A stretch of DNA of 64,000 bases from Stegostoma tigrinum (Eukaryota): contig NC_081370.1 in assembly GCF_030684315.1 (NCBI RefSeq), forward strand, positions 34,366,728 through 34,430,727, in the 5' to 3' direction. Position numbers and translations under genes: made by a program. Every line of letters starts with the position of its first letter. Positions within the stretch are counted from its first letter, which is position 1. Shown here piece after piece: positions 2,439 through 61,843 of the stretch. Under the pieces are notes generated by a model that did no database searches, had not been told where the DNA came from, and worked only from the letters and a program-made list of their open reading frames with translations.

Positions 2439-2759
2439 CTGAACCAGAGGTCCATTTGCCCACAGATGACATTGCTGTTCAGAATGGAACAGAGAGATCT
2501 GTGAGTTGTACTGTTAAAGGATTTTACCCTCAGAAACTTGATCTCACCTGGGAAAAGGAAACAACAAAGGGAATTGAGGAACTAAAAGATAATTTCTGCA
2601 CTGGTGCACTAATTTCCATGGATAATGGAACTTTCAGTGTTTCTAGCAGACTATGGATTGAGCCAACATTGAAAGATAATGGTAATGTATACAGGTGTAA
2701 TGTGAAACACCGCTCGCGCCCCGAAGGTATTATCAGCACAACTCGACTCACAGTTACAG
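2439..2759 (+). CDS. NCR3LG1-like: Gene A extracellular Ig C1 exon (321 nt)
   Basis: tgtag|CT..ACAG|gtatgt. Motifs SCTVKGFYP, LTW, NGTFSVSSRL and YRCNVKH, plus two NGT sequons. Confidence 0.95.
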
Positions 2760-5700
2760 GTATGTTCTCTTTGCAAGATATTTTTTACTCTGCTATTGTT
2801 AAAACACACACATTTAACGAATTTATGCCCTTTGTCTAATATTGAATTTCAACTGAAATATCCATCTGACTTAAATTAGGAGTTCATTCTTTTCCTAGTA
2901 CGCAACTAAATTATTTTTGCCTACAATAATGACTATTAAGAGTAACTAGATATGACATTTCAAAATCTCAGAATGTGATCCAACTGTACCCATGTTCAAA
3001 AGCTGTTAGAGTTACATGTGAATTGCTTTTAGAATCAGTTTTAATGATTTTTATGAAAATGCTAGCGAAAATAATTAAGTAGAGTTATGTTGAAGTTGAC
3101 TGTACAGTGCAGTCTGCTTATGTTCATATGGTTGATAGTGTCCAAACTAAATCGAAAATATTGGGGAAAAAATGAGAAAAGGTAAAGGGGAAAATAGGCA
3201 ATCATCGGTACACAAACCTGATTAATTATATTATCAGGTAGGTCTATGATTAATGTTGTAGTTCCATTCCTGACATCACTACTTTAGATGTAACAACTTG
3301 AATTTAACCATGGATTTCCATAGCACTCAGTGTTAAAGAGAGAGTTGGGTTCCTTTGGACACCTTTAGACTCCCAAAACATTTATTTGCCCAGAAAAACC
3401 AATATATTGAAATATTGTGCCATACACATGGTACACTGTGCATTCCGAGCCAAAAGAGTGTACAAAATAATGTAAATCACTGACTATAACAAGTACTGTG
3501 TAAATTCACATTTATTTATTTTAGTAAAGGGCCCCAGAATTGTTGAACTGTTTTATTTCTCCAGATGGGTTTATTTGCAACACTTCATGCCAAGTTTGGT
3601 ATTGGTGATACCAAATGAACATTAATGGTTTCAATCTAGATTCCTTAATTTCAAAACTGTCCAGTACAGTCTACTGGGGTGCAGCTCTGAAACAATAGTT
3701 TCAGTCATCATGTACGTAAATTATAACAGTGTTGATGTAACTTCATTTCCTTGATAATGAGTGTGACATTCTGTGATTATCCTCTCTACCCTAGAAGTTT
3801 TGTTTTCCTTCAAATGATACAAAAGTAGCTGGTGAGTACATACCATGAGGTCGGTGGATTCCTCAGCATGAGGACTGGGCTTTTTCTTTTCCTCTGATCA
3901 ACCTGTTTAGTTCATCTATGGTACACATCTAGAGTAAGTGGGAGATAAACTTGGGTCTCCTGGCTCAGGTGTAGACCCTACCACTGAATTGCCAGAGCTC
4001 CACATGAGCCATTTTTAACTTTTTTTAACTTCCTGCCCGAAGCCAGCGTGATTTTGTTTTCAAGGGAGGACATTAACTGTACAGGACTGTTATTTCAAAC
4101 TCTTTTAAAACTTTATTGTGTTTAATTATCTTAAATTATTGTTTAATACATCATAGCAAAGCTGTGACAGTTCGCATGGGGTAGTCTATTTTTTGTGGTA
4201 ATTTTAAATTCATTGCTTCTTTACTTGTGTTGCAAATTTCAGAGCCTGAGAGAGATTCTTCAGTTGGAACAGTTGTTTGGAGCGTATTTGGTACATTCAT
4301 TATTTGTGCAGCTTTATTGTTTATTGCATGGTTCTACTGGAGAAATAAAAAAGGTACCATATCCACTTGTGAATATATTATTCCTGTAATTCTTTTAGTT
4401 ACTTCTTGCATGTATTACCTATAGAAGTCCTTGTGCTCTTTAAGTCAAGTCCCCATAGTCTTCGGTCCGCCTCCCCCTCTCTCCCTATTTATTCCAGTTC
4501 CCTCTCCCCATCCCCCTCTCTGATGAAGGGTCTAGGCCCGAAACGTCAGCTTTTGTGCTCCTGAGATGCTGCTTGGCCTGCTGTGTTCATCCAGCCTCAC
4601 ATTTTATTATCTTGGAATTCTCCAGCATCTGCGGTTCCCATTATCTCTCTCCCCATAGTCTCGGATGACCATGCTCTCATTAGGGGGAGATTGACTGTTG
4701 GTGGATTAATCTGAGGGTCACCACACCTCAGAAGAGGGGAGTGGTTGAGAAAGAGGAGCTTTCATAGTAACTTAAGGCGATTCAGTAATTGAACCACACT
4801 GTTGGCATCCCATTGCATCACAAACCAGCTTTCAAGCCAACTGAGCTGTTTGTGCTCCTATTTTGGTGTAATATCAGAACTTGGAGCTTACGCTTTAGCT
4901 GCGATTGGCAATCCAGTCACAAATAGTTTTGTTAGTAGTTTTTCTATTCGAACACTCATTGCACATTCACATCATCGTTGATTCATTTCAGTTTTTTTTT
5001 CTAATTTACTCAGGCTTTGTGGATGTTGCTGTCTGAGCCAGCATTTATTGCCTATTTCTAGTTATTTTTGAACCACTGCAGCCCATTTAGTGCTAGTACA
5101 CCCACAATGCTGTTAGGGAAGAAAGTTCTTGGATTTTAGCCTGGCAACGGTAAAGGAGTGGTGAGAGATGCCCAAAGCTGAGTCGTGAGTGGCTTGGAGG
5201 GGGACTTGCAGGTGGTGATTTTCCCATGTATCTGCTGCCCTTGTTCTTCAAAATGGTAGTGATTGTGGATATCAAAGGCGCTGCCCAAGGATGATTGGTG
5301 AATTTCTGAAAGGTATCTTGTAGGTGGTGCCCACTACTGCTACTGAGTGCCTACAGTGGAGAGACTGAACGTTTGTAGATGTATTGCCAAGGCTGCTTGA
5401 TGTGGATCATGTCAAGATTCTGAAGGAGGTGGAGATAAATTGTCCACTTGGCACTTCTGGCTGAAAATGGCAGCAAATGCTTTACTTTTTTTTTTGCAAG
5501 GACTTGTTGGGCCCCAACTGTTGAGGATGGGGACATTTTCTGATCATTCTTCTTCCAGTGAGTGGATGTGGCAGGGCTGCAGAGCTTAGATCTGATCCAT
5601 TGTTTGTGGGATCACTTAGCTCTGTCTATTACTTGCTGCTTATGCTGTTTAGCATGAAGCTAGTCCTGTTCTGTAGCTTCACCAGCGTAATTCCTCATTT

Positions 5701-8700: not shown

Positions 8701-11700
8701 GTCCATTTGGTGCAGGTTACCCAATTTTTTAAAAAAATTTAGATGTATAGAGAACAATTTATTAGTTTTGTATGTGTGCAGTAGTCAGTTTCTTAGTAAT
8801 TTAAAAGAAAAATGATATTCAAAAGCTTTTAAATCTTGACTGCTGGTGTCCATGTATCTTCCAAAAAGGCTCATTTTGAGAGAAAAGTAAAATACTGCAG
8901 GTACTGAAAATATGAAATTATAAGCTGATAATGCTGGAAAACCTCAGCAGACCCAGCCGCGTTCTACTGAATGAATATTGACCAGAAGCATTGATTGTGT
9001 TTTCTCTCTATGGTTGCTGGTGCCCTACAGAGTTTTTATTACTCTTAATTTTAAGAAGCTCGTCAAAAGCTCGCAATTGGCCCAGTTAGTAGAGGTTGTA
9101 GTAATGATTAATTAAATCTTGGTATGCAACCAGCTTCTAGCACAAAAGACAGAATTTTTGCTTGCTACCTCTGAAATTAAGTGCTATGTGACAATGGCTA
9201 TTGGCAACTTTCTCTACTCAGCAGAGGTTAAGGACCTAAAGTAGTCTATTAATTGCCACTTGGGGGCATTACCCCACCAGTTCCTTGATCACCTACCTCC
9301 CCAGGAAGGAAGAACAGTGGCTAGTCTCCCAACTAGAAAACCGGGGTGACTGACCTGCCAGAGGGTCACCTCTGAAATTTCTCTGCCATTTGACAACAAC
9401 ATCCCCATCCCCCAAAGTCTTGCCAATTACCACCTCCTCCACAAATGTCCACATCTTGTGAGAAGACGATAAAAGACACAACTTCTCATTGCTGGATCAC
9501 CTACAGAACAGATTTTGACCAACAGACACTGGGACTCAGGGACTCTGCTGCTCTTGCTCAGTTCTTAATGAATTGATTCTATGGCAATAGGGTGAGTTAT
9601 CTCACTGGTGTAGGTGATGTGTAAGCTGCTACCTAACGTATTCCCTTTGAGATCAAAAGGGGAAAATCCCAGCCAAGGTTTCCATTGGATGTAATTTGCA
9701 TGTTTTTCATCTGTTGAGAAAAGATTGGATTGGATTGAGAAAAGACAGCGTAAACCTTTCTGAAACTCTCACTTATGTATCCTGGTGTTTGCTAATGTCA
9801 CTGGACTAGTAATCCAGAAGCCCAGGCTATTGCTTTGGTAAACATTAGTTCAAGTCCCATCACAGCAACTATTGCAGTTAAATTCAATTAATAAATCCAG
9901 AATTGAAAGTTACACGACTCCAGACGTGCGCCAGTTTACTTGAATCTCAACCGCTGTCTGAAATGACTGAACAAGTCCATCCATTCAAGGGAAATTCATA
10001 TGGGCAACAAGTGTTTGCTTTGCCAGTGACCTCCTCATCCTATGAAAGAATAATTTAAAAAAAACACAGTCATTGACTTGCATTTGCACTCTGCCTGCAG
10101 CCTAGCAAGGAAATGAAACAGAGTAAGCAAATAAGAACATTTCCATTGTTAAATTTTAATCTTCTTTATTAGTTCCTCCAGAAATTATTGAAATGAAACC
10201 CCCTTCCATCCTTCACCATTTGGAGGAAGATTTCATCGATTACCACGTCTCTGGATTTAGACCTTCGAAGATTCGCGTTGTTTTAATCTTGAAGAGGAGA
10301 GAGAATGGAAATGGAAAAAAAATTTTAGAATGGCACAGCACAGATGGGAATAATGTAAATAATGTACAAACAATGTGCCCAAATAATCAAGATGAAGTGC
10401 AGCTTTTTGTAAATAATTGTGAAGAGGATAGATCTTTTTCACCTTTGGAACCAACTTTATCCTGTAACAGTAATAGAACTTTCAAGTTAAAGGGCACAGT
10501 CAAAGTCTGTCCTGATGTGAAAAGTGATAATGGGGCTGAATTAATTCTTGAAGTTTATCATGATGCTGTTTCCCAAGTCAAGTCAATAGCCATAAGACTG
10601 GATGTTAAAGCAGGTAAACCATGTACACGTTTTTTTCACAATTTTATTTATGCTTCATGAATCCATTCTGTTTTTTTTTGTAAACTTGTGTATTTGTCCA
10701 TACAATGTAATTGTATTGTTAGTAGTGGTCGTGTAGTTTTGCCACCTGGAGTCTGTCTACATTATAGAAAATGCAATCTGTGATATTAGTATTTTCTTGT
10801 TCTTATTAATACGTGGAAATTCTTTCAGTTTCAAGAGATGACTTCTTTATTTTGTTTCCCTTTTCTAAAGTCCCGCCAAAAATTTCAAACATTGTGGTGC
10901 CACTTCGTGTCTGTCATAATGAGCCTGCAGCCTTGGTTTGTTCAATAATTGGATTTAAACCAAATTCTCTTCAAATCACATGGCAACAAATCAGGAAGGA
11001 TAATAAAGTGGAACTTGTTCGATTTCATCAGGGCAGGACTGTCTTTGCTACTAACAATGGTAACAAGTGCAAGTATCATCATCAAATCAGTGAAGTAGAA
11101 TATGAAGATAAATCCTATGGTCTTACCAGTGCCCTAGTTATTTTGCCAGCAATACCGCAAGACCAAGAAACAAGGTATATCTGTGAGGTACAACATGATG
11201 AGTCTTACACTATCAAGCAGAGAGATACAATTCTGCGAATTACAGGTATGTCATTCTTCTGACATCCCTTGTGTAGGAATATGGATTAAATGTGTTAACT
11301 GATGCTATTTTCTCATTTTTGTCTGTTAAAAGCCTACGGTATGTTTAATCTTTTCATTTCTTTTTCAGCCCCACCAAAATTGGACAGGATAGTGTGTAAT
11401 GTAGAAAAACCAGTTGCAGGAGAGTGCATAACTTTGCAGTGTCAAATACATTCTTTTTATCCTCCTGGAATAGTAATAACATGGTTGAAACAAGGTAAAA
11501 AAGTGACAGAAAAATTTGAACAAAGTGAGCCCACACTGGGAATTGATGGACTCTATCGCTTGACCACTAGTTTAAAGGTTACACTGAGCAGAACTGATGT
11601 TGGGAAGAAATATGCTTGCCAAGTAAGCCATGAAAGTCTAGAACAGCCATTGGAAGTTGACTGGAAGGTTGATCATTTCAGTAAGTAACTATTGTTAAAT

Positions 11701-14700
11701 CATCATGCAGAAACTATAAGACAATGAAACTTGCTAAATCATAGAATCCCAACAGTGTTTGGCCTGCTGACTCCATAGCAACCCTCCAAAGAACATCCCA
11801 CCTAGATCCACCCCTCCCAACCTTATCCCTGTAACCCTGCATTTCCCTTGACTAATTCACATAACCAGCAAATTCTGGGCAATATGAGCAATTTAACATG
11901 GCCAGACCATCCAACCTGCACATCTGTGGACTTTGGGAGGAAACTGGAGCACCTGGAAGAAACCCACATAGTTGGGGAGAATGTGCAAATTCCACACAGA
12001 CATTTCCCTGAGGGTGGAATCGAACCTGGATCCCCGGTGCTGTGAGGCAGCAGTGCTAACTACTGGAGCTCTGTGCCATGTGAATAATCTCCAAATTAAA
12101 ATAAATTACCAAGATTCCACTTTTTTTGTAGCTTTACATTGGTACAAATCAGAACCACCAAATTAAACATGAATTAGCAGATACGTGAAAAGGTAAATTT
12201 GCTTTATATAGTTAATACAACAAGATACAGCATATGCAACCACAAATGTTTGCTTCACTTATTGCTGAAAAGTTTTTTTATTCACATAGGGTGGTTCAGG
12301 AGTCCTATCTGACAATAACGTTCACCTCCAGGGTTCACAGATACAAGTATCATCACTATTAACTCACACCCCTACAGTATCTTCTGTTCCTTGCATCATT
12401 GACATTCCTGAGTGTGTAGCTTTCAAAATTTCTTTTCAGTTGAACAACCAAAAACAAGCTGGTTCACGGTTTGGCCACTTCTGGGAAAACACCAAGCTCT
12501 CTGGCATCTCTGAGCTATCTTCATTGAAATAATTTCAGTACTTAAGCTCTTGTGTCCTAAAGCAGCACAGCACATACAAACATCAATTGGTACTCCTCGG
12601 GTGCCTGCCTTTCTGACATATACTAGGTTATATCACAGTTCTGGAAGAATTGTCATACCTAATTTAGTTTTTATAACACCTTCACAAAACTAACCAAGAT
12701 GCCACCGTTACAAAATCCAACCTCCAAGTATGTGGAAAATTAGGCTTGAATGGCCTCACGATATTCAATAACAAAGTTGCTGGAAAAGCTCAGCAGGTCT
12801 GGCAGCATCTGTGAAGGAAAAAACAGAGTTAGCGTTTCAGGTCCTGTGACCCCTCCTCAGCTCTGAGGAAGGGTCATCGGACCCGAAACGCTAACCCTAT
12901 CTTCTCCTTCACAGATGCTGCCAGACCTGCTGAGCTTTTCTAGCAACTTTGTTTTTGTTCCTGATTTACAGCATTGGCAGTTCTTTCAGTTTTTATCACG
13001 CTATTCAATGTTCTGTCCCAAAATTGATGAGTTGCCAATCCCATCTGAAGCTGAAGCACTGGCTGCAGCTTTATGCATGTATGAGGGTGCGGGGGGTGGA
13101 ATGAGGGGCAGTGAAATGCAACACTTTGTTCAAGAAAACAACATGTGACAATTTATTAAGGGATACTTGAGATCTTTAAAAATAGTGACATTTTCATTAA
13201 TGCAAACTCAAAACACTCTATTTTGTTTGTCTGCAGTATTAGCACCAAAGGTAACAGAAGTTACAGTTGATCCTGTTCACCCAAAGGTGGGAGAACTTGT
13301 AACCCTTTCCTGTAAAGCTTACGATTTCTTCCCAAAAGACAACGAAATATTCTGGCTGAAAGGGTTTGAGAGAACTAAAGATGGAGTTGAAATGGATGAC
13401 ACTGTATTCGATAGCTCGTCTAGTTTGTACTCTCGACGGTCCAAAAGGACATTCAGTCCAACTGACATGGACCATGGAAAAGAGTTCAAAATGCAGATTC
13501 TTCACACTGGGACTTCAAATAAGCCTGTCTCATCCAGTCATGTTTTGAAACTATTTGGTAAGCCTGGTTCCCAACAAGATTTCAGAGTAACAATTACAGA
13601 ATGTTGAAACGTTATTTAGAATGGACGGATGGTTCAAGTTCATTAAGTTGACTAATGTTTTGTCAGGAAGGTTGATTAGTCCATTAAGTTAGGTCGAATG
13701 ATCCATTTCATTGAATCGCCGCAATGTGGAAGCTGGCCATTTGGTCCATCATGTCCGTACCCACCCTTCCGCCCAAACTCTACTCGAACACTGTAACCCT
13801 GCATTTCACATAGCTAATCCCCATAGCCTGCACGTTCCTGGACACTGTGGGCAGTTTAGCATGGCAGTCCGCCTAACCTGCACCACTTTGGACTGCAGGA
13901 GGAAACTGGAGTACCCGGAGGAAACCCAGATGTGGAGAGAATGTGTAAACTCCACACAGTCATCCAAGGCTGGAATTGAATCTGGGTCCCTGGTGCTATG
14001 AGGCACTAGTGCTAACCACTGAGCTACTGTGCCATAGAATATATCACAAGATTTCACTTTTGCGAAAACCAACAAAGCAAATTTTATACGGAACAGGTTA
14101 AACAAGCAAACTTGACATAATGTTTTATAACTATGTATATTGTGCATTCCAGTTTACTTCTTATTGCACCTAAGAATTATCTTCTGAGATTAATCAATCT
14201 TTAAAGTTATTTACTTATGTAGGGACCTCTGACAGGTAAGCCTCAGCTTTCAGGAAATGTCGTCTTGGTTTCAGCTATTCTCCCCAATAAAACCTTAATT
14301 TACCTTCTCTTGACTGAGGAATCTGCTTTTCATTACTTAGAAGTTAAACTGTTCTTCCCTTTTGTAACACAAAACTTCCAAGGGCCATTGTCGGCTTTCC
14401 ATTCATTTCAAGCTGCACAATCTTCCATCTTCTGTTCTCCCATAAAGTCCAAATTGAGATTAAGCCATCCCCGCTCCAAAATACATTAATGATCTTATTA
14501 GTTTTCACTCTACGTAGAGTGCAGATCTGTCTGTCATCTGTTGTGACTATCATCTCTTAGCGAGCTATGTACCACATGAAATCCAATCTGCAACTGGCAA
14601 AGAGTCAGTTTAAATGAAACCAGAAAATCTTGCCAAGAACCACCAATCTGTATAACAATTTAACATGTTCAGGATTAGTGATACCTTATTTAATGTTTAT

Positions 14701-17700
14701 TCTTTAATGTGAATGAGTTTCACAATTTTCCATCATTCACTAAATACTTTTAAATTAATTTCATTCTAAATCCCAGAACAAAGATGTCTCCAAGACTTCC
14801 CAAACTGAGGAATACAAAAATCACATTTCCATGGTTTTTTTAACGCCATAAAATCATCTGCTGTGTTATGATTTTACTTCTCTAACTGTTAACCTCAAAT
14901 AAAAATAGATTCATAGAATCCTTACAGTGCAGAAGGAGGTCATTCAGCCCATCAAATCTGCACTGACTGTCCCTCATTAGACTTCTTGCCTCATTCTGCT
15001 ACACCTATCGCTCAGACCCATCTCACATTCTACCAGCTGTTTCTACTGTTTGTCAAATGCTGCAGTACCCTCTCTGACAGGAAGACGACATTGCTTTTAT
15101 TTTGAAGATGAATTCAACACCGGCTGGAGAGTGTTTTCACTGACATTCCTTGTTTGCCAGTGACCTCCAAATCCATTTTAGTGGCTCCTTTGGCCCTGAT
15201 TTGTGGTATTCCATCTTGCTTCTGGTTTGCTAATCGCAACTTAAACTTCTTGTATCTTAAAGATTTTGACAGTTCATTATTTTCTTTGGAATGGCCAACA
15301 TTATGTATCTGTTTCACTGACCAAAGTTTGGTGGGAAAGGCTGGGGAGACAGATGTTCAAATATTTGTTGATGATGCTTAAACCTGATGCTATAAGGTTT
15401 GTAATCACTTGCGGTTTCATTCAATTTCAACAGGAATACCATATGTTGAAGATATCAAACTTGTTCCACCAGAAGCCAAATATGGTAGTGACCTTACTAT
15501 GACATGCCGTGTCACTAACTTTCTCCCACAAGACATTAATGCAGCTTGGCAACAAGATGGCAACCAGGTAGTCAAGGAAATCTCAGTTAAAGGACCTGTG
15601 AAGGAGAAAGATGGATGCTCTTCTGTGACATTTCAGTTACAAATAAGACCAACTGCACTAAATTTTAATCAAGAATTTTCTTGCCAAGTGAGCCATGTTA
15701 AATTAAAGGCTCCAGTTACAAAAAAGACAGTTTTAATACTTCCAGGTAGGTTTTACCATGACTCTTTTCTTTATAAAATTTGAAAAGTTCCAAGTCATTT
15801 TTAATTGTGGTTGACTAGGTCAAAGAGAATTAATTTGATTTCATCTTTAGAGGTAGGAGAATGGCATGAAACAAACTATTTCAAGATAAATGACCGCGAG
15901 CAAATTAGAATTCAATAACTCTTAAGAATTCAACAGATTGTAGAAGAAACCTTAACTGGTGATACATAAAAGAAGGATTTTTGATTTGAGATCATTATGT
16001 TCGCTGTTTTAAAAATATATCCAAATAAATTCAGCTTTTGAAGTAATTACATTGATAGAAACTAGATCGCAGAAGTTCTGAACATTTTTGTTTTTGCCTC
16101 AGTTTGTCAGTCTTCTAAAAAACTTTTAATATGGATCTTTCTAGTACAAGTTGGACAAAATAGTTAATATTATGATTTTTGAATCCAGTTTTGTTTTGGT
16201 CTGTCTTTTCTGTGACAGTACTTTGTGTGAGTTATAATGCAGTGAACTTTATTCTTTGGGAGCTCCTTTGATATTTATAGGTAAAAATGTCTCTCACTGC
16301 TGCTGTAAAGTGGTATATTGAAATACCCTACCACTATCTTTACTTATAAGGTCAGTGTTGTTTTCAAAAGAATCTTTTGAATATGATCATTAGTTTATCT
16401 TTCATATATTTTGTGTACATCGCAGACTATAAATGTATGTTTAGTTTCATTTTATATTGTTCATCTTAAAGATTAATGGCTGTGGAACAAAATTCAATCA
16501 TTCATAAATCTTTTATTTGTTTTTCAGCTTTGTCTCCTACCTTGTCTTCTATTAAGCTTGATCCAAATTCCTTTGAAGTTAATCAGAAACTAACATTCAG
16601 TGTTACATTGACAAAATATGCTCCTGCTGCAGTCGAAATAAAGTGGTTTAAAAACGAGACACGTTCAAATATGATTCACAAACCTGTGGAAATTGCTAGT
16701 GATGGTCTTTGCTCATCAGTTACAAGCACAGAATTTGTTGCAACTGAGAAGGATGATGAGTGTGTCATCAGATGTGAAGTGTTTCATCCAGCAACAAAAG
16801 AAATTCAAGAGAAAACTTTCACATTATTCCTTAAAGGTGAGTGCCATTTTGTTAGAGATGGGTTGAGAACAAAGCATTTCATCACAGTCACAAACAAAAA
16901 CAGAAATTGCTGGAAAAGCTCAGTGGGTCTGGCAGCACATGTGGAGAGAAATCAGAGTTAATGTTTTGGGTCTAGTGACCCTTCCACGGAACTGTGGACA
17001 GGCCACTGAACCCAAAATGTTAACTCTGATTTCTCTCCACAGATGCTGCCCGACCAGCTGAGATTTTCCAGCAATTTTTGGTTTTGTTTCTAATTTACAG
17101 CATCTGCAGTTCTTTTGGTTTTCATTTCATTAAAATGTTATAATTGTCATGTTGAGTTTCTTGAATGCAATGTATTCATTTGAATGTTTACTTGATGTTG
17201 AAACTTTGTCGATAAACAGATTTTATTGCTGTGCTGAGAATAGTTAATTTGTGATGACTTCAGATTCATTACTCTTAAAAGAGCTACTTAATACTCCAAT
17301 ATTCTAAGGATGTACTACATTTAACTAACTGTTTCTGTGCTCAGGTATTAAAAATGAAGAATCGCCTTATTCAGATCTATTGAAAGATGAAGGTAAAGTG
17401 TTCATCTTGAAAGTTTTTGTTTTGTGCATGTTTGGTTTTAATCCATATTGATGTCAGTGTAGGGTATCAGACTATGCAGAAAATAATGTAGATATAACAT
17501 TTCAGATGGAGAGGAGTGCTGTCTTCATTTCTGGCTATTAGAATGGATCTAATGGGTGATCCTTTTAAAGTGAAACAGGGATGATATGATGTAATCCAGC
17601 ATCCCATTTTCATCATCACTGCCCTAATTACACACAATTGTACCTGTGTTCAAATAGAATTACTGACTAGGGTTGCGAGCTGCTGGGTAAAAGACAAAAA

Positions 17701-20700
17701 CGCCAAACACAAATATTCATATTTCTCCCGATATTATGGATAGAGTATAGTTTGCTGTTCCTAATGCTCTATTCTTTGTAATTTTCCATGAATCTATCAT
17801 GTCAGAAAAGATACGTCATATTTTTAATTTTGTAAGAATTCTATAAGGGAAAGGAAATCAGGTTAGTGAGTGTACAGTGGAAACCCATGACATGTACTCA
17901 CCTGTGGAAGTAATGACCTTTTCCATGTTTAGCCAAGAATGAGAAGGAAATGCACAACTTCAATGCCACCATTGTTTTAATCAAAACTTGTATAGTGTGT
18001 ACATGCATGTACCTGTAGTGATCCAGGTGCTACCTAATTAACAAGGAGGTGGGAGTTAGCTTGATCTTGTACTAATGTGAACTAATCTGTCCAATTTGTT
18101 GAGACATCCCAATCTGACCTAGTCCCATTTGCCAGTGTTTGGTCTGTATCGCTCTAAACCCTTCTTATTCATGTACCCATCCAGATGTTTTTTAAATGTT
18201 TTAATTATAATCACTTACACCACTTCCTCTGGGAGCTCATTCCATATACACACCACCATCTGTGTGAAAAAATTTCCCTTTGGGTCCTTTTTAAATCATT
18301 CCCCTCTCACCTTAAACCTTTGCCCTCTAGTTAGGTGCTCCCCCAACTTGGGAAAACAACCTAATCTATTCACCGTACCCATGCCTGTCATGATCTTATA
18401 AACCTCCGTAAATTGACCCCTCAGCCTTTGATGCTCCAGGGAAAATAGCCCTAGCCTATTAACCTCTTCCCTATGACTCAAACCCACCAGCCCCAGCAAC
18501 ATCCTTGTAAGTCTTTTCTGCACCATGTCAAGTTTAACAACATCTTTCCTACATGAAGGCCACCAGAATAGTACACAGTATTCTGAAAGTGGACTCAGCA
18601 ATGTCCTATGCAGCTGCAGTGTGACATCCCACTCCTACACTCAAGTGCTCTGACCAATGAAGGCAAGCATGCCAAATGCCTTCTTCACTACCCCATCTAC
18701 CTGCCACTCCAGTTTCAAGGAACTATGCACCAGCATGCTTAGGTCTCTTATTCAGTTTACAGGGCCCTACCATTAAGTGTATACGTCCTGCCCTGGTTTG
18801 GCTTACCCAAACTGCAACACCTCACATTTATCTAAATTAAACTCCGTGTGCCACACCTCACCCCATTTGATCAAGGTCCCATTGTGCTCTGAGATAACGT
18901 TCACTGTCCATTACACCACCAATTTTGGTATAATCTCAAACTTTCTGATCATACCTCCTATATTCACATCCAAATCATTGCTATAAATTACAAAAAGCAG
19001 TGGACCCAGCACCGATCTTTGCGGCACATCGCTGATCATAGGCGTCCAGTCTGAAAAGCAACTCTCTATCACCATCCTCTGTCTCCCAGCTTCAAGCCAA
19101 TTTTGTATCCGATTGACTAACTCATCCTGGTTCCCATGTGATCTAACCTTACTAATCAGTCTACTGTGCAGAACCTTGCAAATGCTTTGCTGAAGTCACA
19201 ACAACATTTACCAATCTGTTTTCATCAATCTTCTTTGTCACCACTTCATAAAACTCATTCAAGTCAGTGGATCATGATCCCCCATGCACAAAGCCATGTT
19301 GACTATCCCTAATCAGTCCTAGCCTTTCCAAGTGCATCTAAATTCTATTTCTCAGAATCCCCTCCAACAACTTACCCACCACTAAGGTAAAGCTCACTGG
19401 TCTGTAATTCCCTGGCTTTTATTTACAGTTTTTCTTAAACAATGGCACCTTTTTAGCCAACCTCCAGTCTTCCTGCACCTCTCCCGTGGCTGTCGATGAT
19501 GTACACATTTCAGCAAGGGACCCAGCAATCACTTCCCTAGCTTCCCACAGAGTTCTGGGAAATACCTGATCAGGTCCCAGGGACTTATCCAACTTTTATA
19601 TGTTTTAGTACCTCCAACACCACCTCTTCTGTAACATGAACACTTGTCAAAGACATCACTGTTTACCTCCTCAAGTTTCTTGGCTTCCATGACCTTCTGC
19701 ACAATAAACAATGATGTAAGATATTCACTTTGCATCTCGCCCGTCTCCTGTGGTTTCACACACAGCCAGTTTGATTGTTAAGGGACCCTATCCTCTCCCT
19801 AGTTACTCTTTTTCCATTAATATGCTTGTAGAATCTCTTTGGATTCTCCTTAACCTTATTTGTAAAAGCTGCATTATGTCCCCTCTTTGCCCTTCTGATT
19901 TCCCTCTTAAGTATATTCCTTCTGCCTTTATACTCTAATGATTCACTCATTCCCAGCTGTCTATACTGGATATATACTGCGTTCTTTTTCTTGACCAGAA
20001 CCTCAATTTCTCTGGTCACCCAGCATTCCCTACTCTTACCAGCCTTGCCCTTCAGACTAACAGGAACATAGTATCTCTGAAATCATGTTATTTCATTTTT
20101 AAAGGCCTCCCACTTCCAAAATGTCCCTTTACCTTCGAATAGCCTCGCTCAATCAACATTTGAAAGTTCCTGTCTAATACTGTCAAAATTGACCTTACTC
20201 CAGTTAGAACTTTTAACTTTATGATTAATTCTATCTTTTTCATAACTATTTTAAAGCTAGTATAATTATGCTCACTTGTTCCAAAGTGGTCCCCGACTGA
20301 TTCCCCTGCTTTGCCCTGCCTTATTTCCCACCAGAAGGGCAAGTATTGCTCCTTTTCTAGTATATACATCCACCTCCTGAATAAGAAAGTTATCCTGTAC
20401 ACACTTAACAAATTCCTCCCCATCTAAGCCCTTAACAGCCCCAGTCTGTGTTTGGAAAGTTCAAATCTCCTTTTATTACAACCCTATTACTATTACAGAT
20501 ATCGGATATTTCCTTCTCCATTTCCTGCTGACTGTTGAGGTCCCGATAATGCGATCCCAACAAGTTGATCATCCCATTCTTTTTTAAAGTTCAACCCGTA
20601 TACATCACTGCCGGTCTCCCAGGAATATCCTCCCTAAGTACAACTGTAATGTTATCCCTCACCAAAAACACCCCCACCCACCACTTCTCTTGTCCCCATT

Positions 20701-23700
20701 TCAGTCCTTCCTATAGCATCTCTACCCAGGATATTGAGGTGCCAGTCCTGTCCATCCCTGAGCTGCATTTCTATAATAGCTGTAATATCCCAGTCCCATC
20801 TTCCCAACTATGCTCTGAGTTTGTCTGCCTTACAAGTCAGTCTTCTTGCATTGAAGTAAATGCAGCTTAATTTATCAGCTTGGCAGTAAATCTCTGATTC
20901 GGACCTGCTGTAGGCTCCCTGGTTTGGTACTGTATTCATTATCTCTTTGTTCCCTGTATGCCTCTGCCTAAGTCTTTTGGTCTGTACATCCTTTACTTAC
21001 TATGATCTGCCTGTATGTCATGACAGATCAAATGAGTAGCAAGAGATGCATATCTCCCTGGAAGCCACTGATTAATTGATTGATTAATTTATTGTCACGT
21101 GTACCGAAATACAGTGAAAATTTCTGTTTATGAGCTATACAGGCAGATCATAGTAAGCACGGGATGTACAGATTAAAAATAGTTAGATAGAGGCATACGT
21201 GTTACAATGCACAGAGTGTGTGCTAGGCAAGATTAGTTTTAACAAGATCAGCATTATTTGAGGCTAGAGAGTCCGTTCTTCAGTCCAATAGCGGCTGGGA
21301 AGAAGCTGTTCCTGAACTTGCTCGTACGTGTGTTCAGGCTTCTGTATCTTCTGCCTGATGGAAGAGGTTGTATGAGTTTATTAACGGGGTGTGATGGGTC
21401 TTTGATGTAGGCACCCTCTCTGCAGCAGCGAGCTGTGTAAATGGAGTCCACAGATGGAATGCTGGCTTCCGTGATGGTCTGGGATATGCACACCACCTTC
21501 TGCAGTTTCTTACAGTCCCGAGCAGAGCAGTTGCCATACCAGGATGGACATTCTTGCCGTTGAGGGAGTGCAGCGTAGGTTCACGAGGTCAATTCCTGGA
21601 ATGGTGGGATTAGCATATGTTGAAAGATTGGAGCGACTGGGCTTGTATACTCTTGAGTTTAGAAGGATGAGCGGGGATCTGATTGAGACGTATAAGATTA
21701 ATAAGCGGTTGGACACTCTGGAGGCAGCCCAGCTCGTCCTCTCCCCCCACTGCATCCCAAAACCAGCCCAGCTTGCCCTGGCCTCCCTAACCTGTTCTTC
21801 CTCTCGCCTATCCCCTCCTCCCACCTCTAGCCGCACCTCCATTTCCTACCTACTAACCTCATCCCGCCTCCTTGACCTGTCCGTCCTCCCTGGACTGACC
21901 TATCCCCTTCCCTACCTCCCCACTTATACTCTCCTCTCCACCTATCTTCTTTTCTCTCCATCTTCGGTCCGCCTCCCCCTCTCTCCCTATTTATTTCAGA
22001 ACCCTCTCCCCATCCCTGTCTCTGATGAAGGGTCTAGGCCCAAAATGTCAGCTTTTGAGCTCCTGAGATGCTGCTTGGCCTGCTGTGTTCATCCAACTTC
22101 ACACTTTGTTATCTTGGATTCTCCAGCATCTGTAGTTCCCATTATCTCTATCTCCCTTTTGTCGTTTGACTCATTGTTGTTTGATGTCCGTCCCACTACT
22201 GTGGTGTCGTCAGTGAACTTGTATATGGCATTCATTCAGAAGTTGGCAACACAGTTCTCCAGTTCACCCATCATCTGCACAATTCTTCTGAACTTGTCTT
22301 ATATCTACACACAATATAAAACTAAACTGCTAGATTATTCTGATTTTGAGCAAATGGTCAAGGAATCCTGATTCATATGCCAGTAACTTCTCACTGCATG
22401 TTCATTGCTCAATACACCCCCTTCACGTAGTCTCTGATGGATGTCTCTGCCCTGATGAATGGGAGAGAGCGAATGAATGCTTGTTTCTGCACTACAGTCT
22501 GGTTGCACTGAAATCATACTTGAAGGTATATCTAGACAAATAAAACAAATAGACTCTTTGAAATGGTACTCATCAGTTTTAGCGGAAACAGTAGTATGGA
22601 TTTCATGTTGTGCTTCTAACTTGTTGGCTGTATCACCTAAAGTGCTTTAGTTAGTATCTATATAGCTACATTCACATTGAAATGGCATATTTCAGTTTTT
22701 GGGACTTAACTGACTACTGATGCTTTGTCCCAATTTTAAAGTCTTTAACACAATTAGTGGAAGCTATGTTATGTAGTAGATAGCCATGAATGCACTATCT
22801 TCTTGGATCTTCCTGACCTGGAGGTGACTGAAGCATTTTGTGCCATGAAGTGACCTTTTGCTAAATAGATGATTTCATGCTAACTATCCTCCATATCTTC
22901 TGCAGCTCTCTTTTTGTCACTTCCCAAAGTGTATTATGTTCCATAATTGCTTCAAATTTAGTAAAAATTTCTCATGTTGGAAACATGCCCATTTTGATGT
23001 GTAACCCATGATTTTTGCCCAGGTGAATACATTCTAGTCATGTGGCTTTTAACTATTCATCTGGTGTGAGGTAACAACATTTTAATCTCACACTCAGTTT
23101 TCCCAGTTTGAAGAACAGGATTCCTTCTTATATTTTGATTCTTGAATATTTTTGTTTCTTCTCTCATCCATGACTACGCCTTCATTCTTCCATGAACTCC
23201 ATGTCTTCTGTATTGGGACAGTAGATAGCTAGATGTTCTCTCACTAATGTTATGGTTTTTATTTTCATCTTGAACATTAAGGCCCATAATTAATGCAGGT
23301 GTGTTGCTGACTGTTGGTAAAGTAGCTTAGTATTCGTAGAATGTTGGAAGTAGTTTAGGTTAGAATCAAAAGACCCCTTGTGTAGGAGTGCAGAGTGTTC
23401 GCTGGAACTACTGAATATCATTGTTTTCCTTTTGGTAATTAAAGTAAAATCTATTTATTTGTTATATTATTAAGAGTTTTACCGATCTCAATTTTTATTC
23501 CACCCTGCAATTTTACAGGGGTATCACAGATAACTTGCGAGACACCACATCCTCAAGCTGGCCAACCTGTAACGATTTCCTGCACTGTTACGGGATCTTC
23601 TTTAGAAGACACACACATCACTTGGTACAAAGATATTTATCCTTTAGATGAAACCAGCTGCATTAAAAAGAAACCATTTGAAACTGGTGTAGGTTTCACC

Positions 23701-23811
23701 ACTGCATTAACTTTCACACCAAAGCAAGAAGATGATAATTGTCAGTTCCAAGTTAATATTATCACTGAGATGGACCCAGTCAGCAGATATTTCAAACTGA
23801 AATTAAGTTGA
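2439..23811 (+). CDS. NCR3LG1-like: Gene A (5'-partial, 10 exons in window): B7-H6-like receptor, [leader-V outside window]-C1-TM-(Ig)x6-ITIM-Ig-stop
   Basis: Ten AG..GT-bounded phase-1 exons join into one open frame ending at TGA 23809-23811. Exon order and sizes mirror gene B. Confidence 0.88.
4243..4353 (+). CDS. NCR3LG1-like: Gene A transmembrane exon (111 nt)
   Basis: tttcag|AG..AAAG|gtacca. Encodes EPERDSSVGTVVWSVFGTFIICAALLFIAWFYWRNKK, a hydrophobic helix followed by a basic stop-transfer. Confidence 0.92.
4462..4649 (+). mobile_element. Penelope-like terminal fragment with 12-bp target-site duplication
   Basis: TCCCCATAGTCT at 4450-4461 and 4650-4661; the body matches the 3' end of the 28585-31401 element. 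Confidence 0.85.
4520..4547 (+). ncRNA. Minimal type I hammerhead ribozyme motif within the Penelope-like terminal repeat
   Basis: CTGATGA-A-GGG(TCTAGG)CCC-GAAA-CG-TC: conserved core, short stem II and palindromic ACGT stem III. Confidence 0.7.
5010..6920 (-). mobile_element. Patchwork of old LINE/SINE remnants
   Basis: Segments recur at ~8620, ~38400-38580, ~44880-45050 and ~62390-62700; family not assigned. Confidence 0.5.
6938..7227 (-). mobile_element. tRNA-derived V-SINE (HE1-like)
   Basis: A box TGGCTCAGTGG, B box GGTTCGATTCC and the V-domain GGAGTTTGCACATTCTCCCC..GGTTTCCTCCC. Confidence 0.85.
10173..10613 (+). CDS. Gene A post-TM Ig domain 1 (441 nt; atypical, long insert, no canonical Cys)
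   Basis: tttattag|TT..GCAG|gtaaac. Encodes VPPEIIE..IDYHVSGFRP..LILEVYH. Homologous to 56925-57356. Confidence 0.88.
10871..11245 (+). CDS. Gene A post-TM Ig C1-like domain 2 (375 nt)
   Basis: ctaaag|TC..ACAG|gtatgt. Motifs LVCSIIGFKP, ITW and YICEVQH. Confidence 0.93.
11369..11680 (+). CDS. Gene A post-TM Ig C1 domain 3 (312 nt)
   Basis: ttttcag|CC..TTCA|gtaagt. Motifs LQCQIHSFYP, ITW, DGLY and YACQVSHESL. Confidence 0.95.
11740..12077 (-). mobile_element. V-SINE (HE1-like)
   Basis: Same B box and V-domain as 6938-7227. Confidence 0.8.
12771..12952. repeat. Palindromic element made of two inverted Penelope-type termini (second family)
   Basis: Arms of about 90 bp around 12860, with a CTGAGGA..GAAA motif. 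A related palindrome lies at ~16890-17120. Confidence 0.75.
13237..13557 (+). CDS. Gene A post-TM Ig C1-like domain 4 (321 nt; F-strand Cys replaced by Met)
   Basis: ctgcag|TA..TTTG|gtaagc. Motifs LSCKAYDFFP, IFW and FKMQILH. Confidence 0.92.
13710..14033 (-). mobile_element. V-SINE (HE1-like)
   Basis: tRNA-like head and V-domain. Confidence 0.78.
15434..15745 (+). CDS. Gene A post-TM Ig C1 domain 5 (312 nt)
   Basis: caacag|GA..CCAG|gtaggt. Motifs MTCRVTNFLP, AAW and FSCQVSH. Confidence 0.93.
16528..16836 (+). CDS. Gene A post-TM Ig C1-like domain 6 (309 nt; B-strand Cys replaced by Val)
   Basis: ttttcag|CT..AAAG|gtgagt. Motifs FSVTLTKYAP, IKW and IRCEVFHP. Confidence 0.92.
17345..17392 (+). 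CDS. Gene A 48-nt micro-exon encoding GIKNEESPYSDLLKDE (ITIM consensus SPYSDL)
   Basis: gtttctgtgctcag|GT..GAAG|gtaaag. Phase 1-1 and frame-preserving; not in the ORF track. Confidence 0.72.
18110..20880 (-). mobile_element. Degenerate CR1-like LINE (ORF2 remnants, internal deletions)
   Basis: Minus-strand remnants EYCVLFWWPSCRKDVVKL..QKRLTRML, KENPKRFYKHI and GDHFGTSEHN. Confidence 0.85.
21080..21543 (-). mobile_element. Rex1/Babar-like LINE 3' end (continues at ~22150-22255)
   Basis: DPSHP..LPSGRRYRSLNTRTSKFRNSFFP motif. Confidence 0.7.
21544..22148 (+). mobile_element. CR1 fragment fused to a Penelope-like 3' end, nested in the Rex1-like LINE
   Basis: LAVEGVQRRFTRSIPGM..DLIETYK up to ~21725, followed by the Penelope terminal repeat. 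Confidence 0.75.
23519..23811 (+). CDS. Gene A terminal exon, post-TM Ig domain 7 with stop codon
   Basis: ttttacag|GG. Translates GVSQITCETPHPQAGQPVTISCTVTGSSLEDTHITWYKD..FTTALTFTPKQEDDNCQFQVNII..VSRYFKLKLS*. Found manually; not in the ORF track. Confidence 0.87.
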
Positions 23812-41326: not shown

Positions 41327-41464
41327 CAGTTCTTGCTATCTCTACGTTTTTAGGTTGTTCTGGTTGGGGCGTTTTGATTTAATAGATACAAATTCAGTAT
41401 TCGTACCCAAGAGTAGTTCTAATGAGTTTGCATATTTTCTTTTTAAAACGGATATGGGTGCTCA

Positions 41465-42839: not shown

Positions 42840-42912
42840 ATGGGCCCGGTGAGGAGCTCGCTGCCGCCTCTGGTCCCGGTGTTAGCACTGCTGACCCTGG
42901 TACCGCACTCAG
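42840..42912 (+). CDS. NCR3LG1-like: Gene B signal-peptide exon
   Basis: Kozak context GCCATGG. Encodes MGPVRSSLPPLVPVLALLTLVPHS; donor CAG|gtaaag is phase 1. Confidence 0.88.
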
Positions 42913-45900
42913 GTAAAGGTCGGGGATGGGGGAGCGGCCATTCGGCCGTCTTCGGGAATGCTGGGCTCAAAAGTTCAGGCTTTGTACTTTGCCCGTGCAT
43001 TTTCTCCGGGTGTAAAATAGGAGATGGGCATTTCCTCTCCTAGGACGCTATTTAATATGTTTTGTGTTGAAATTGGCTAAATAAAGCTTAAATTCCTCGT
43101 CGAGCTGGAGAAACTCAGAAATTCACCGTCTGGAGAGAGAAAATAGAATTAATGTTTCGGGTCCAGTGACCTTTCTTCAGCACTTCTGCGCTTTTAAAAA
43201 TACAATTGTACCCATTTGGACGTACATGGAATAGCGTAGGTTAGATGGGCTTGAGATAGGTATGACAGGTCGGCACAACATCGAGGGCCGAAGGGCCTGT
43301 ATTGTGCTGTAATGTTCTATGTTCATTTTGCTTCTACTTTCGTTACGGAAATAGCATTAGTTTGAATAATGTGTTTCAAAAATATATATAAGGTGTAGAG
43401 CTGGATGAACACAGCAGGCCGAGGAGCATGAAGGCTGACGTTTCGGGTCGAGACTTTCTGGAGAAGCTCTGCACCGTGTTACCTCAGATTCTCCAACATC
43501 GGCAGCTCCTACTATCCCTTTCAAAAATATATGTCGTTATTCTGCCTTGCACGGGCTGTTTGACAGCTGGGCACTGACTACTGGTAGGATCTTGGTCTCA
43601 CTCCAGAGCTCCTGACCTGAGGTTCTGACCCAGTGCCCCATCAACTAACTGGGCACAGCCTGCTTTAATACAGGGTTGTGGAATCATACTGTACACTAGA
43701 GGTCCATGGAGTCTGCACCAATGGAAGACTACTCGAAGTCTACACTAGTTCCCCAGACCATCACTTGGCCCCCAGCCTTCAATGTTATGACATTTCAAGA
43801 GCTCATCCATGTACCTTTTAAAGACTTTTGAGGTTTCCCAACTCAGCTTCCTTCCTGTGTAGTGCATTCCAGATTTCCGTCACCCTCTGGTTGAGAGAAA
43901 ATACCTCCAAACACCCTCTAAGCCTCCTGTCTGTCACCTTAAAATCACACCCCCTTATTATGTGCTATTTAGCTAAGGGCAAAGGCTGCTTTCTGTTTGT
44001 GCTGTCCCTGTCCCGCATAATCTTACGTCTCTGGCTTAGGTCTCCTTTCAGCCTTCCCTGCAACAATGGTAATAACCTGAGTTTCTGCAGCCTCTTTCCT
44101 TAGCTAAACATCATGAAAATGCAAGGCAACCAATTTAATGGGTTGTGAGACTATCTTACATCTATTGCTTGCTTTCTTTTAATTTTCGCTTCAAGCAATG
44201 TATTCACTGCTTGTGGAAGCCCCCAGTTTCATCAGGCAAATACTATGTTGATAATGTTACAATTTCCCGCAAGTAAAATTTTCACCTAAGTGCTGCTTTG
44301 TGACTAAGTACTTTTTTTGGAACACAGACAGAAATAGGGAAAGCAGCTACCCTTCATATCTCAGCACCTAGCATCTTTGTGCTGATTAGGAAATGTTTGT
44401 TGCCAATACTCTCTTTTCAGAATGGCGATAAAAGTCGTGACATCTGTCCAACTTTGCCCCGGAGATATTTGAGGAGTTATCCTTGGTCTAACCTTATTTT
44501 CAACTATATGGGGTCTAGGTGATATATAATGAAGACATAGCCTCTTTGGCTACATGTACAGCAATCACACCCAGCTTGACACCACCACCACCTCTCTTCA
44601 AACTCTGTCATTTTCTCTCTCAGCTTGATTGTCTGACATCCAGTTCAATCAAAAACAGGTTGAAATTTCTTTTAAACTGAAAATCACTAAGCCATGACCG
44701 ACTGCAGTATAGGCACCTTTATCATAGTTGGATTCCCTCAGTTTCAGCTTTCCTATTTACAATTGCAGTGTCCTGCTTGATCCCAAGTTGGAGTTCTGAC
44801 CTCATTTTCTCTTCATGCCAAGACCGTCTACTTCCACGTTTTTATCTATACCTTTGTTTTAAATTGTATCCTTGAGATACGGGCATATCTGGCTAGGCTG
44901 GGATTATTTGCATATCTCTAAATGCCCAGAGTGCACTTGAGAGTTGCTCTGGGTCTGGAGTTGCATGCAGGCCAGAACAGGTAAAAGCAGCAGCATCGTT
45001 CCTTAAATGATGTTAATGAGCCAGTGTGTGTTTTTTCACAACTATCAGCAGTGGTTGCATTTTATTGTAGAGCTATTTTTTAAAATTCCTCCTTCTATTG
45101 AATTCAGATTGGACCCTTTTACTCAGATAAAAACCAAAAGAACTGCAGATGCTGTAAATCAAAAACAATGCCGCTGGAAAAGCTCAGCAGGTCTGGCAGC
45201 ATCTTTGACAGAGAAAACAAAGTTAATGTTTCGGGTCCAGTGACAAATAATTCTAGCCTAGCCAGATATGACCATATCTCAGTTTTGAGTTACTAGTCCA
45301 GTGACATTAAAATACACCACTTGGGCCTCGTTTGTTTTATGAAGACCCTCATGCAATCTTTTGACACCATCTAGGCTCCTGTTTTGTCTGAGCATTGAAC
45401 TTTTTTTTTCTGCAATGCTTGGTGCATTATTGTTGTCCAGGGTGTTCTACAAATGCAGGATGTTGGTGGAATTGTTGAAATGACAGTAATCCTTCAGTCG
45501 ATTCAGGACTTAATGTTCAAGATACATATTGTTCTGATAGCATCTTTATTGAAATAGTTGGGCTGCTGGATGAATTATCTGCTGATAATTTTGATCTTGA
45601 TTGTTGCAGAACAAGGTGACCTAATTGTGTCGATGAATTCAGGAATTGTGAAAGCCACCGTAAATAAAGATGTTGTTCTGGAGTGCCGAGTTTCTGACTA
45701 CAGAAGAAAAATTGAGCTTAAAAACATGGGCGTCCAGTGGTTCTACCAAGAATCAGGCTCTCTAGATGCGCAGAAACGAGAGGTTTATCAATTCATTGCT
45801 GGCAAACATATACCATACAGAAAAGGAGCCACAATTATTGACGATTATTTGAAGGAAGGAATAGCTTCCCTTTTTCTTCCAAGTGTGCAATTTTCTGAAG

Positions 45901-60900: not shown

Positions 60901-61843
60901 AAGAAATTGAACGGTTTCTGGCTATGATATCTAGTGCTCTCCTTTCTACAATGAATTTATTTTATTGAACAAGTCTAAAATATTGAATTGAGTGGTTACA
61001 ACTTCAATTTGTTCTGAATTTCACTTTAGTATCAATCTTATTGTGTTTTACTTCTGGTCTCCTATTCTTCGGGTTGTTGTTGTGGTTGCTGTAATTGAGA
61101 AAAGATGCTTCCTAAATGCATACTTGGCCGGGCAACCAGATTTTAGCAGGATAAGGAAAATATCTCAAAACTACAGAATGAGGTAGAGAGGCATAGAAAT
61201 TTGGGAAAGGAATTCCAAAGCTTGAAGGCTAGCATTATGAAGTCAGAACAGCCCTTCTCATAGGAGAACTTTTCAGAATTTCAAAAAAAAAAGATCAGCA
61301 AATATCCAGGGTTAGAATGGATATTAGCTTATCATCTTTACTCAGCTACCTTGTATTTTGTAATTCAGATGCATAGTTAAGATCAAATATTTGTACAGTC
61401 ATTTGTAACTTTGCTAAGCAGATGCTTTTTTTTTGTTGTTTAAACATGAAATAAGTTTTAAAAACTTCAGTTTAGAACAAAGACCTAATGAAACAATCAA
61501 AATTTATGTTTTCCCATTTTGTTTTCCACAGCTGTCCCAAAATGTGATAATATAAAACTGTCACCAGAAACTCCGATTGTTGATGAACAAACAATGGCAT
61601 CTTGCAGAATATACTCATTCTTTCCAAAAAGCATTAAAGTTATCTGGAAAAAGGGTGATATTGTATCAAAGGAAGTGAATGCTGATGCTGAAGCAAACTA
61701 TGGAAAGGATGGCCTTTATTATTTCACAAGTCGTTTTGAATTCATTCCTTGTAGGGAAGATTTGGGGAAGGCATTAACTTGTGAATTCCAGCATGGAAGT
61801 ATCACTGGGTCCAGAAGAATTGAATGTGTACTGAATCAGTTAG
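42840..61843 (+). CDS. NCR3LG1-like: Gene B (3'-partial, 7 exons in window): B7-H6-like receptor, leader-V-C1-TM-(Ig)x3...
   Basis: Seven in-frame phase-1 exons. The last has a donor (G|gtaagt) and no stop, so the gene continues beyond the window. Confidence 0.9.
45610..45972 (+). CDS. NCR3LG1-like: Gene B Ig V-set exon, B7-H6-like (363 nt)
   Basis: ttgcag|AA..TCAG|gtaaga. Encodes DLIVSM..VVLEC..MGVQWF..YRKGA..GIASLFLP..EAGDYTCIVFITP, matching recalled B7-H6 V motifs (MGITWF, RPGA, GDASLRLP, EAGEYRCEVVVTP). Confidence 0.93.
47067..47161 (-). mobile_element. Short Penelope-like terminus with imperfect 14-bp TSD
   Basis: AGTCAGA(G/A)AGGACA at 47053 and 47162. Confidence 0.8.
47297..47617 (+). 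CDS. NCR3LG1-like: Gene B extracellular Ig C1 exon (321 nt)
   Basis: ttgcag|CC..AAAG|gtatgt. Motifs VKCDSVDFYP, NGTYSVSSRL and YICYVRHSSL; about 43/107 identical to gene A C1 by manual alignment. Confidence 0.95.
48795..49475 (-). mobile_element. CR1-like LINE 3' end
   Basis: Homologous to 18110-18800. Confidence 0.78.
51200..53950 (-). mobile_element. Very old CR1-like LINE remnant
   Basis: Scattered minus-strand motifs: LEHCVRFW at ~51600, YMDLQNSF at ~52220 and QHGFIQG at ~52320. Confidence 0.55.
54764..55092 (+). mobile_element. V-SINE (HE1-like)
   Basis: V-domain TGTGTGGAGTTTGCACATTCTCCCCGTGTCTG and a CR1-type tail. Confidence 0.85.
55581..55697 (+). CDS. NCR3LG1-like: Gene B transmembrane exon (117 nt)
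   Basis: caacag|AG..AAAG|gtaaca. Encodes EPEVVVPVGIITGCVILSILACTAVAGIGFFVYLKYLKK. Confidence 0.92.
56925..57356 (+). CDS. Gene B post-TM Ig domain 1 (432 nt; long insert, F-strand Cys replaced by Val)
   Basis: tttatag|TT..GGAA|gtaagt. Motifs MNCQISGYRP, ICW and LQVQVHH. Confidence 0.9.
60170..60547 (+). CDS. Gene B post-TM Ig C1-like domain 2 (378 nt)
   Basis: acaaag|TT..ACAG|gtacca. Motifs VTCPINGFKP, ITW and YICEVTHP. Confidence 0.9.
61532..61843 (+). CDS. Gene B post-TM Ig C1 domain 3 (312 nt)
   Basis: ccacag|CT..TTAG|gtaagt. Motifs ASCRIYSFFP, VIW, DGLY and LTCEFQH. Confidence 0.93.

Follow-up and report, generated by a model that had tools for sequence, protein, structure and literature searches.

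A 64,000-nucleotide stretch of the zebra shark genome (Stegostoma tigrinum, assembly GCF_030684315.1, contig NC_081370.1, forward-strand positions 34,366,728 to 34,430,727; hereafter the window) contains two tandem genes that resemble B7-H6 (NCR3LG1), designated A and B here, both on the plus strand and surrounded by repeats. The encoded architecture comprises a variable (V) and a constant-type (C1) immunoglobulin (Ig) domain, a transmembrane (TM) segment and then up to seven C1-type Ig domains, numbered D1 to D7. The compartment of these post-TM domains and the state of the canonical disulfide-forming cysteines on their B and F strands are the subject of this analysis. Splice sites served to place the exons, each of which is open, flanked by AG and GT and in phase 1 (Table 1). 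The gene A model is the zebra shark RefSeq protein XP_048401614.1 (1091 aa), with a D2 exon that is 100% identical; the exons for its leader and V domain fall upstream of the window. Gene B, with the order leader-V-C1-TM-D1, likely extends past the window end, judging from its whale shark orthologue, which has D4-D6.

The V-C1 ectodomain found its best match among solved structures in human B7-H6 (E-value 1e-35; PDB 4zso, 3pv6 and 6yjp), with CD276 (1e-21) and the tapasin-related protein TAPBPR (2e-18) also matched, and the match to human B7-H6 was confined to residues 40-250. A nurse shark orthologue deposited in GenBank as B7H6 (QTT61906.1) has the identical nine-domain order and 82% identity over residues 290-800, and homologues from Bombina and Ranitomeya carry the NCBI name NCR3LG1, which is a database name and not a statement of function. 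With a single-pass type I topology and a leader also predicted, the sequence features tested would place the protein with B7-H6. Because two paralogues sit in tandem, the window genes are likely co-orthologues of the human gene. The tail of human B7-H6 is Gag-derived, a mammalian feature; the zebra shark tail differs in consisting of Ig domains, which run from residue 290 as far as the C-terminus. As most homologues are predicted models, D1 to D7 might in principle be part of another gene or transcript that is not joined to the TM exon. This is highly unlikely, as the joined architecture recurs across jawed vertebrates (104 of 206 proteins), the nurse shark record contains all nine domains, and D1 is in frame with the TM exon and has neither a start nor a leader of its own.

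Cysteine states in the window were read by domain alignment and codon position. As a sequence-only reading of this DNA had claimed, the three ectodomain exons (gene A C1, gene B V and gene B C1) all retain both canonical cysteines, and the pair is absent from D1, D4, D6 and D7 of gene A and from D1 of gene B, with each replacement verified by codon (Table 1). Both cysteines are present in D2, D3 and D5 of gene A and in D2 and D3 of gene B, so that five of the ten post-TM domains in the window have the pair and five do not; D1 of gene A also lacks the C-strand tryptophan. Within the window alone this contrast is not significant (3/3 ectodomain vs 5/10 post-TM pairs retained, one-sided Fisher p = 0.20). 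Assembly error at the cysteine codons was ruled out by orthologues and, for D1 to D6, by contigs of four public sequencing runs, which over 10100-16900 showed a single, intronic difference (14262); the runs represent at most two samples of one study, possibly the genome source itself. The F-strand cysteine of gene A D5 (TGC, 15682-15684) is replaced by phenylalanine in whale and nurse shark, and its presence in zebra shark is likely a recent regain of the canonical pair, in which case the usual number of pair-less domains in gene A would be five of seven rather than four.

Table 1 Exons of the two tandem B7-H6-like genes within the window (positions of the window; B, E and F denote strands).
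Feature	Position	Strand	Description
Gene A ectodomain C1 exon	2439..2759	+	Canonical pair intact (Cys 2507, 2696), third Cys also conserved; C1-set 2e-12
Gene A TM exon	4243..4353	+	111 nucleotides, phase 1-1; basic residues beyond the helix
Gene A D1	10173..10613	+	C1-like with long insert; B = Tyr (10241), core Trp position = Leu (10283), F = Leu (10547)
Gene A D2	10871..11245	+	C1-set with insert; both Cys present
Gene A D3	11369..11680	+	C1-set; both Cys present
Gene A D4	13237..13557	+	C1-set; F = Met (13491), lone B Cys
Gene A D5	15434..15745	+	C1-set; F Cys = TGC (15682), Phe in other sharks of the gene's clade
Gene A D6	16528..16836	+	C1-like; B = Val (16602), lone F Cys
Gene A linker exon	17345..17392	+	48 nucleotides, acidic, tyrosine motif S-x-Y-x-x-L
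Gene A D7 and stop codon	23519..23811	+	F = Val (23752); conserved A-strand Cys
Gene B leader (signal peptide) exon	42840..42912	+	Match to whale shark N-terminus
Gene B V exon	45610..45972	+	Both Cys (45684, 45915)
Gene B ectodomain C1 exon	47297..47617	+	Both Cys (47365, 47554)
Gene B TM exon	55581..55697	+	117 nucleotides, phase 1-1
Gene B D1	56925..57356	+	B Cys (56993), F = Val (57290), extra E-strand Cys (57236)
Gene B D2	60170..60547	+	Both Cys
Gene B D3	61532..61843	+	Both Cys

Cysteine retention was then compared across relatives in two surveys. Survey 1 comprised 48 proteins hand-picked from 177 for shark-type architecture (named members: chimaera, sharks, rays, coelacanth, reedfish, lungfish and frogs), with gapped rows excluded per site. 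In the ectodomain, both cysteines were retained in every V (47/47) and C1 (48/48) domain. A third, apparently unpaired cysteine of the ectodomain C1 domain (residue 198 of P0001) occurs in 47 of the 48 homologues and could link dimers. After the TM segment, both cysteines were found in 1/48 D1, 0/46 D4, 17/39 D5, 2/38 D6 and 11/40 D7 domains. Removal of four internally duplicated ray proteins and of poorly covered rows gave counts of 15/36 for D5, 2/35 for D6 and 11/38 for D7. Four proteins have an additional domain ahead of D7, and in these the D7 column is unreliable. The usual pattern was replacement of one cysteine by a larger hydrophobic residue while its partner remained. Survey 2 comprised 100 of 145 cluster representatives with one internal TM segment and a tail of at least 150 residues, scored with half-domain profiles. 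The pair was retained in 94/102 pre-TM C domains vs 196/302 post-TM domains (Fisher p = 2e-8, with rows that are not independent), and loss is undercounted here because the profile misses some cysteine-less domains, such as D1 of gene A. The replacements were hydrophobic, as previously noted for the window, in 110 of 116 post-TM cases. Across the relatives, loss was concentrated after the TM segment and was position-specific.

Changes between cysteine and non-cysteine were also counted by parsimony on a tree to allow for kinship, which gave none at four ectodomain sites vs 20 at 14 post-TM sites (p ~0.007; p = 0.018 without D7). Mean identity per domain was similar throughout (0.33-0.44). A single-domain tree (86 domains of 11 proteins), built on few columns and with local support of 80-99, recovered C1, D1-D5 and D7 as one group each and required two changes for D6. 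The groupings of D1-D5 and D7 span chimaera, sharks, rays, coelacanth, reedfish and frogs. It is therefore likely that the array, with most of its cysteine pattern, is older than the split between cartilaginous and bony fishes.

The location of the array was assessed from topology. A further membrane helix, which would bring the array back to the outside, was rejected, the best post-TM hydropathy over 19 residues being 1.2. Lysine and arginine are more numerous after than before the TM segment in 78 of 100 relatives (305 vs 139). N-glycosylation sequons occur at 1.86 times the expected frequency before the TM segment and at 1.17 times after it (survey 2), and conserved sequon columns were restricted to the ectodomain C1 domain in survey 1. 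The post-TM array probably lies in the cytosol, for which topology provides the stronger evidence; cysteine loss supports such a location and is no proof.

AlphaFold2 was used to model the full protein from 39 sequences, and all nine domains were predicted as beta-sandwiches (mean predicted local distance difference test score, pLDDT, 82), with low confidence confined to the leader, the TM flank, the D1 insert and the linker. The earlier proposal that the fold is kept without the canonical disulfide agrees with these models, in which the seven post-TM domains are confidently predicted sandwiches. D1 of gene A modeled alone reached a pLDDT of 83, and Foldseek matched it to beta-2-microglobulin, major histocompatibility complex (MHC) and nectin-like domains. 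Structural alignment of this model (VIA-align) gave Z scores of 12.3 for SIRP-gamma and 11.9 for the B7-H6 C domain over ~100 residues (root mean square deviation 2.0 and 1.9 Å, respectively), and V-type domains scored within about 1 Z of constant-type domains for this predicted fold. The Pfam C1-set profile (PF07654, cut-off 21 bits) was matched by D2 (35.6), D3 (65), D4 (33.7) and D5 (52) of gene A and by D2 and D3 of gene B, whereas D6 (20.7) and D7 (20) of gene A and D1 of gene B (17.8) fell just below the cut-off and D1 of gene A had no Pfam match. I-set scores were under the cut-off for all post-TM domains, which have conserved extra cysteines on strands A and E and no CysB-F-G triad. 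For the post-TM domains, a sequence search for solved relatives returned generic C1 matches only, and atlas searches returned generic C1 clusters only. Homodimer prediction for D1-D3, run without an alignment, gave no answer (score 0.00).

Taken together, we consider it probable (roughly 0.7) that the protein combines a V-C1 ectodomain and one helix with a cytosolic chain of C1-type domains that lack a B-F bond and hold their cysteines as small buried residues. The B-F disulfide is not made at the redox state of the cytosol, so that each cysteine would be constrained by packing alone. After loss of the bond, one position would have been enlarged (Met, Phe, Val, Ile or Leu) in D1, D4, D5 and D6 before cartilaginous and bony fishes split, with the neighbouring cysteine retained for core volume, and D2 and D3 may hold both cysteines for the same packing reason. 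Partnerless cysteines are retained in 45/46 D4 and 33/35 D6 domains, as strictly as the D2 and D3 pairs, and among the 48 proteins D1 has an aromatic residue at the B position in 23 and at that of the C strand in 10, and in none at both. The ectodomain is presumably a ligand of NKp30-family receptors, and the array could serve as a docking scaffold for cytosolic partners, through which such a ligand would signal into its own cell. In sharks, the acidic tyrosine motif of the D6-D7 linker would then be a likely SH2 site.

Several observations weigh against this interpretation. In survey 1, D2 (45/46) and D3 (47/48) keep both cysteines almost as strictly as the ectodomain, so the cysteine state is not diagnostic of compartment. 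Eight of the 102 pre-TM C domains in survey 2 lack the pair; all are the first ectodomain C1 domain of a divergent group (P0053, P0077, P0088, P0110, P0112, P0126, P0144 and P0151), whose two named members are amphibian (Xenopus tropicalis and Bombina), with the B cysteine replaced by serine (5), alanine (2) or glycine (1) and the F cysteine by isoleucine in three. When domain classes were taken as units, the contrast was not significant (0/2 vs 5/7 classes losing the pair, p = 0.17). Sequon enrichment per domain in D1 (1.40) and D3 (1.44) equals that of V (1.41) and C1 (1.46) in the 48 proteins. The linker tyrosine motif, found in eight shark proteins, is absent in rays, chimaera and frogs and was rejected as a family-wide signal. 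The claim that the pair is lost only after the TM segment holds within the window, where the ectodomain pairs are intact, and fails family-wide. Nor can cysteine loss be said to support an intracellular location independently, given the window and class-level tests and the intact D2 and D3 pairs. The same ectodomain exceptions and class-level test would favour compartment-independent divergence, in which these are simply old, divergent C1 domains that shed a cysteine, as also happens in some extracellular Ig domains, and cysteine loss says nothing about location. However, the ectodomain exceptions share one subfamily position and have small replacements, in contrast to the large hydrophobic ones after the TM segment, and repeated independent changes occurred solely post-TM in the 48-protein set, which makes this explanation unlikely.

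The suggestion that such domains could be natural disulfide-free scaffolds is not supported in that wording. Only D1 of gene A lacks both canonical cysteines, yet it has four others; the post-TM domains are richer in cysteine overall than the ectodomain (2.77 vs 2.15 per 100 residues), and D1 of gene B has an E-strand cysteine beside its B cysteine that could be a candidate alternative pair. Alternative pairs (B-E in D1; A-B or A-EF in D7) might have replaced the canonical bond, acting as titin-like redox switches or metal sites. Both D1 cysteines are present in 7/7 gene B orthologues examined, and among the 48 proteins 20 have both, 18 neither, seven the E cysteine only and three the B cysteine only. 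The A-strand cysteine of D7 is found in 39/41 proteins, and in titin a non-classical CysB-CysG bond is described (PMC5766482). Against replacement by such pairs, the D1 B and E sites change five and six times on the tree and jointly nine times, and so mostly change separately; tyrosine at B accompanies glycine at E in six sharks, which fits volume compensation; and ranid frogs have the D7 A-strand cysteine without the B cysteine. Replacement by alternative pairs is rather improbable compared with buried, unpaired cysteines in the cytosol.

A different possibility is that the TM exon is skipped in frame to give a secreted V-C1-D1-Dn form, so that the domains must fold both in the cytosol and in the endoplasmic reticulum, with the D2 and D3 pairs forming upon secretion and the other domains evolved to need none. 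Both window TM exons are in phase 1-1, and for gene A skipping would leave the reading frame intact. Isoform pairs that differ by exactly the TM segment (39, 39, 31, 34 and 37 aa) exist in white, basking and horn shark, Bombina and Rana (P0204/P0207, P0206/P0208, P0198/P0196, P0060/P0209 and P0066/P0210), and the segment orthologous to the gene B TM is missing from isoform X2 of white and basking shark. In addition, C1 directly precedes D1 in 7/206 proteins, vs the 104 with C1-TM-D1, and a hydrophobic leader was found in 4/4 of these that were checked; the sequon excess in D1 and D3 points in the same direction. Conversely, the TM-less isoforms are database predictions, low-level skipping can affect any symmetric exon (whale shark X2 skips D1), and no TM-less isoform was found for zebra shark gene A, which forms a cluster of one. 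Lone cysteines are also as strictly retained as the D2 and D3 pairs, so retention can be explained without a disulfide. Dual topology is a possible but doubtful alternative to the explanation favoured here; if TM-less transcripts were abundant, the array would also be secreted and the D2 and D3 pairs could form there.

The zebra shark domains resemble C1-set domains such as those of SIRP, tapasin-related protein, MHC molecules and Ig constant regions, D2-D5 by the Pfam profile and the D1 model by structural alignment. These, however, are extracellular or lumenal and disulfide-bonded, whereas the zebra shark domains follow the TM segment and often miss one cysteine, and the inserts of ~20-40 residues in D1 and D2 are also unlike them. 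Titin and obscurin domains are of the I-set and occur in sarcomeric proteins, in contrast to C1-type domains in the tail of a surface receptor. Titin and obscurin nevertheless offer a likeness in their cytosolic Ig folds, extra cysteines and partial CysB and CysF retention, with CysB in 43% and CysF in 42% of the intracellular Ig domains of titin (PMC5766482). Shark UrIg2 similarly combines a non-rearranging V domain with a long C1 array, and it is described (PMC12227049; PDB 9dmx) as VJ, nine C1 domains and then a TM/cytoplasmic region, which places its array before the TM segment and not after it as in zebra shark.

Tails vary among the relatives in a way that fits a modular platform. In a horn shark paralogue (P0011, P0196-P0199) the tail consists of seven near-identical D1 repeats, and V-C1-TM-D1 proteins whose tails contain tachylectin domains were also seen (P0176 and P0177 of Xenopus, and P0065). 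An unnamed 703-aa gene model (P0115) joins an N-terminal PYRIN domain (E-value 2e-17) to D2-related C1 domains with both cysteines and has no signal or TM segment. Long repeated-C1 proteins in which no signal or TM segment was seen (P0040, P0094, P0117, P0105 and P0140) may be fragments or cytosolic arrays; in several of them, alternating repeats have Tyr or Phe in place of the B cysteine. Elsewhere in the window, introns and intergenic DNA contain degenerate retroelement-like frames and high-copy interspersed repeats, labelled by appearance (28700-31400, 40200-42500, 18100-21600, 34000-35100 and 38800-39500). A broader and tentative scenario is that ancestral jawed-vertebrate B7-H6 carried a cytosolic C1 array, although C1-set domains are otherwise associated with the exterior of immune cells, and that conserved TM-exon skipping toggled the array between cytosol and secretion, with tails that gained sensor modules (tachylectin domains in frogs) or donated domains to cytosolic PYRIN proteins. 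The intact pairs of D2 and D3, the lone cysteines of D4-D7 and the aromatic swap or B-E pair of D1 would then form a mosaic that records selection for folding under two redox regimes.

Intracellular Ig domains have reportedly been described in fish type I proteins, a report that our searches did not find. A literature search found no description of an Ig array in the cytoplasmic part of B7-H6 or of any type I receptor, although key papers lay outside its coverage and absence from print is not shown by it; a search of the PMC3964593 supplement gave no match. As the protein is already in databases as B7H6, the depositors of the nurse shark record may have described the tail.

Overall, the zebra shark observation is real and ancient, and the interpretation first placed on it is partly supported. 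Cysteine loss alone is an expected by-product, and the TM-skipped isoforms open the more striking idea to a direct test. The family constitutes a natural experiment on Ig constant-domain cysteines without the disulfide, in which hundreds of sequences show core-preserving substitutions that are useful for the design of intracellular antibody domains. The presence, from chimaeras to frogs, of six or seven post-TM C1 domains in an immune ligand of the cell surface revises the picture of the ancestral NKp30 ligand, and the array suggests that this ligand signalled back into the cell displaying it.

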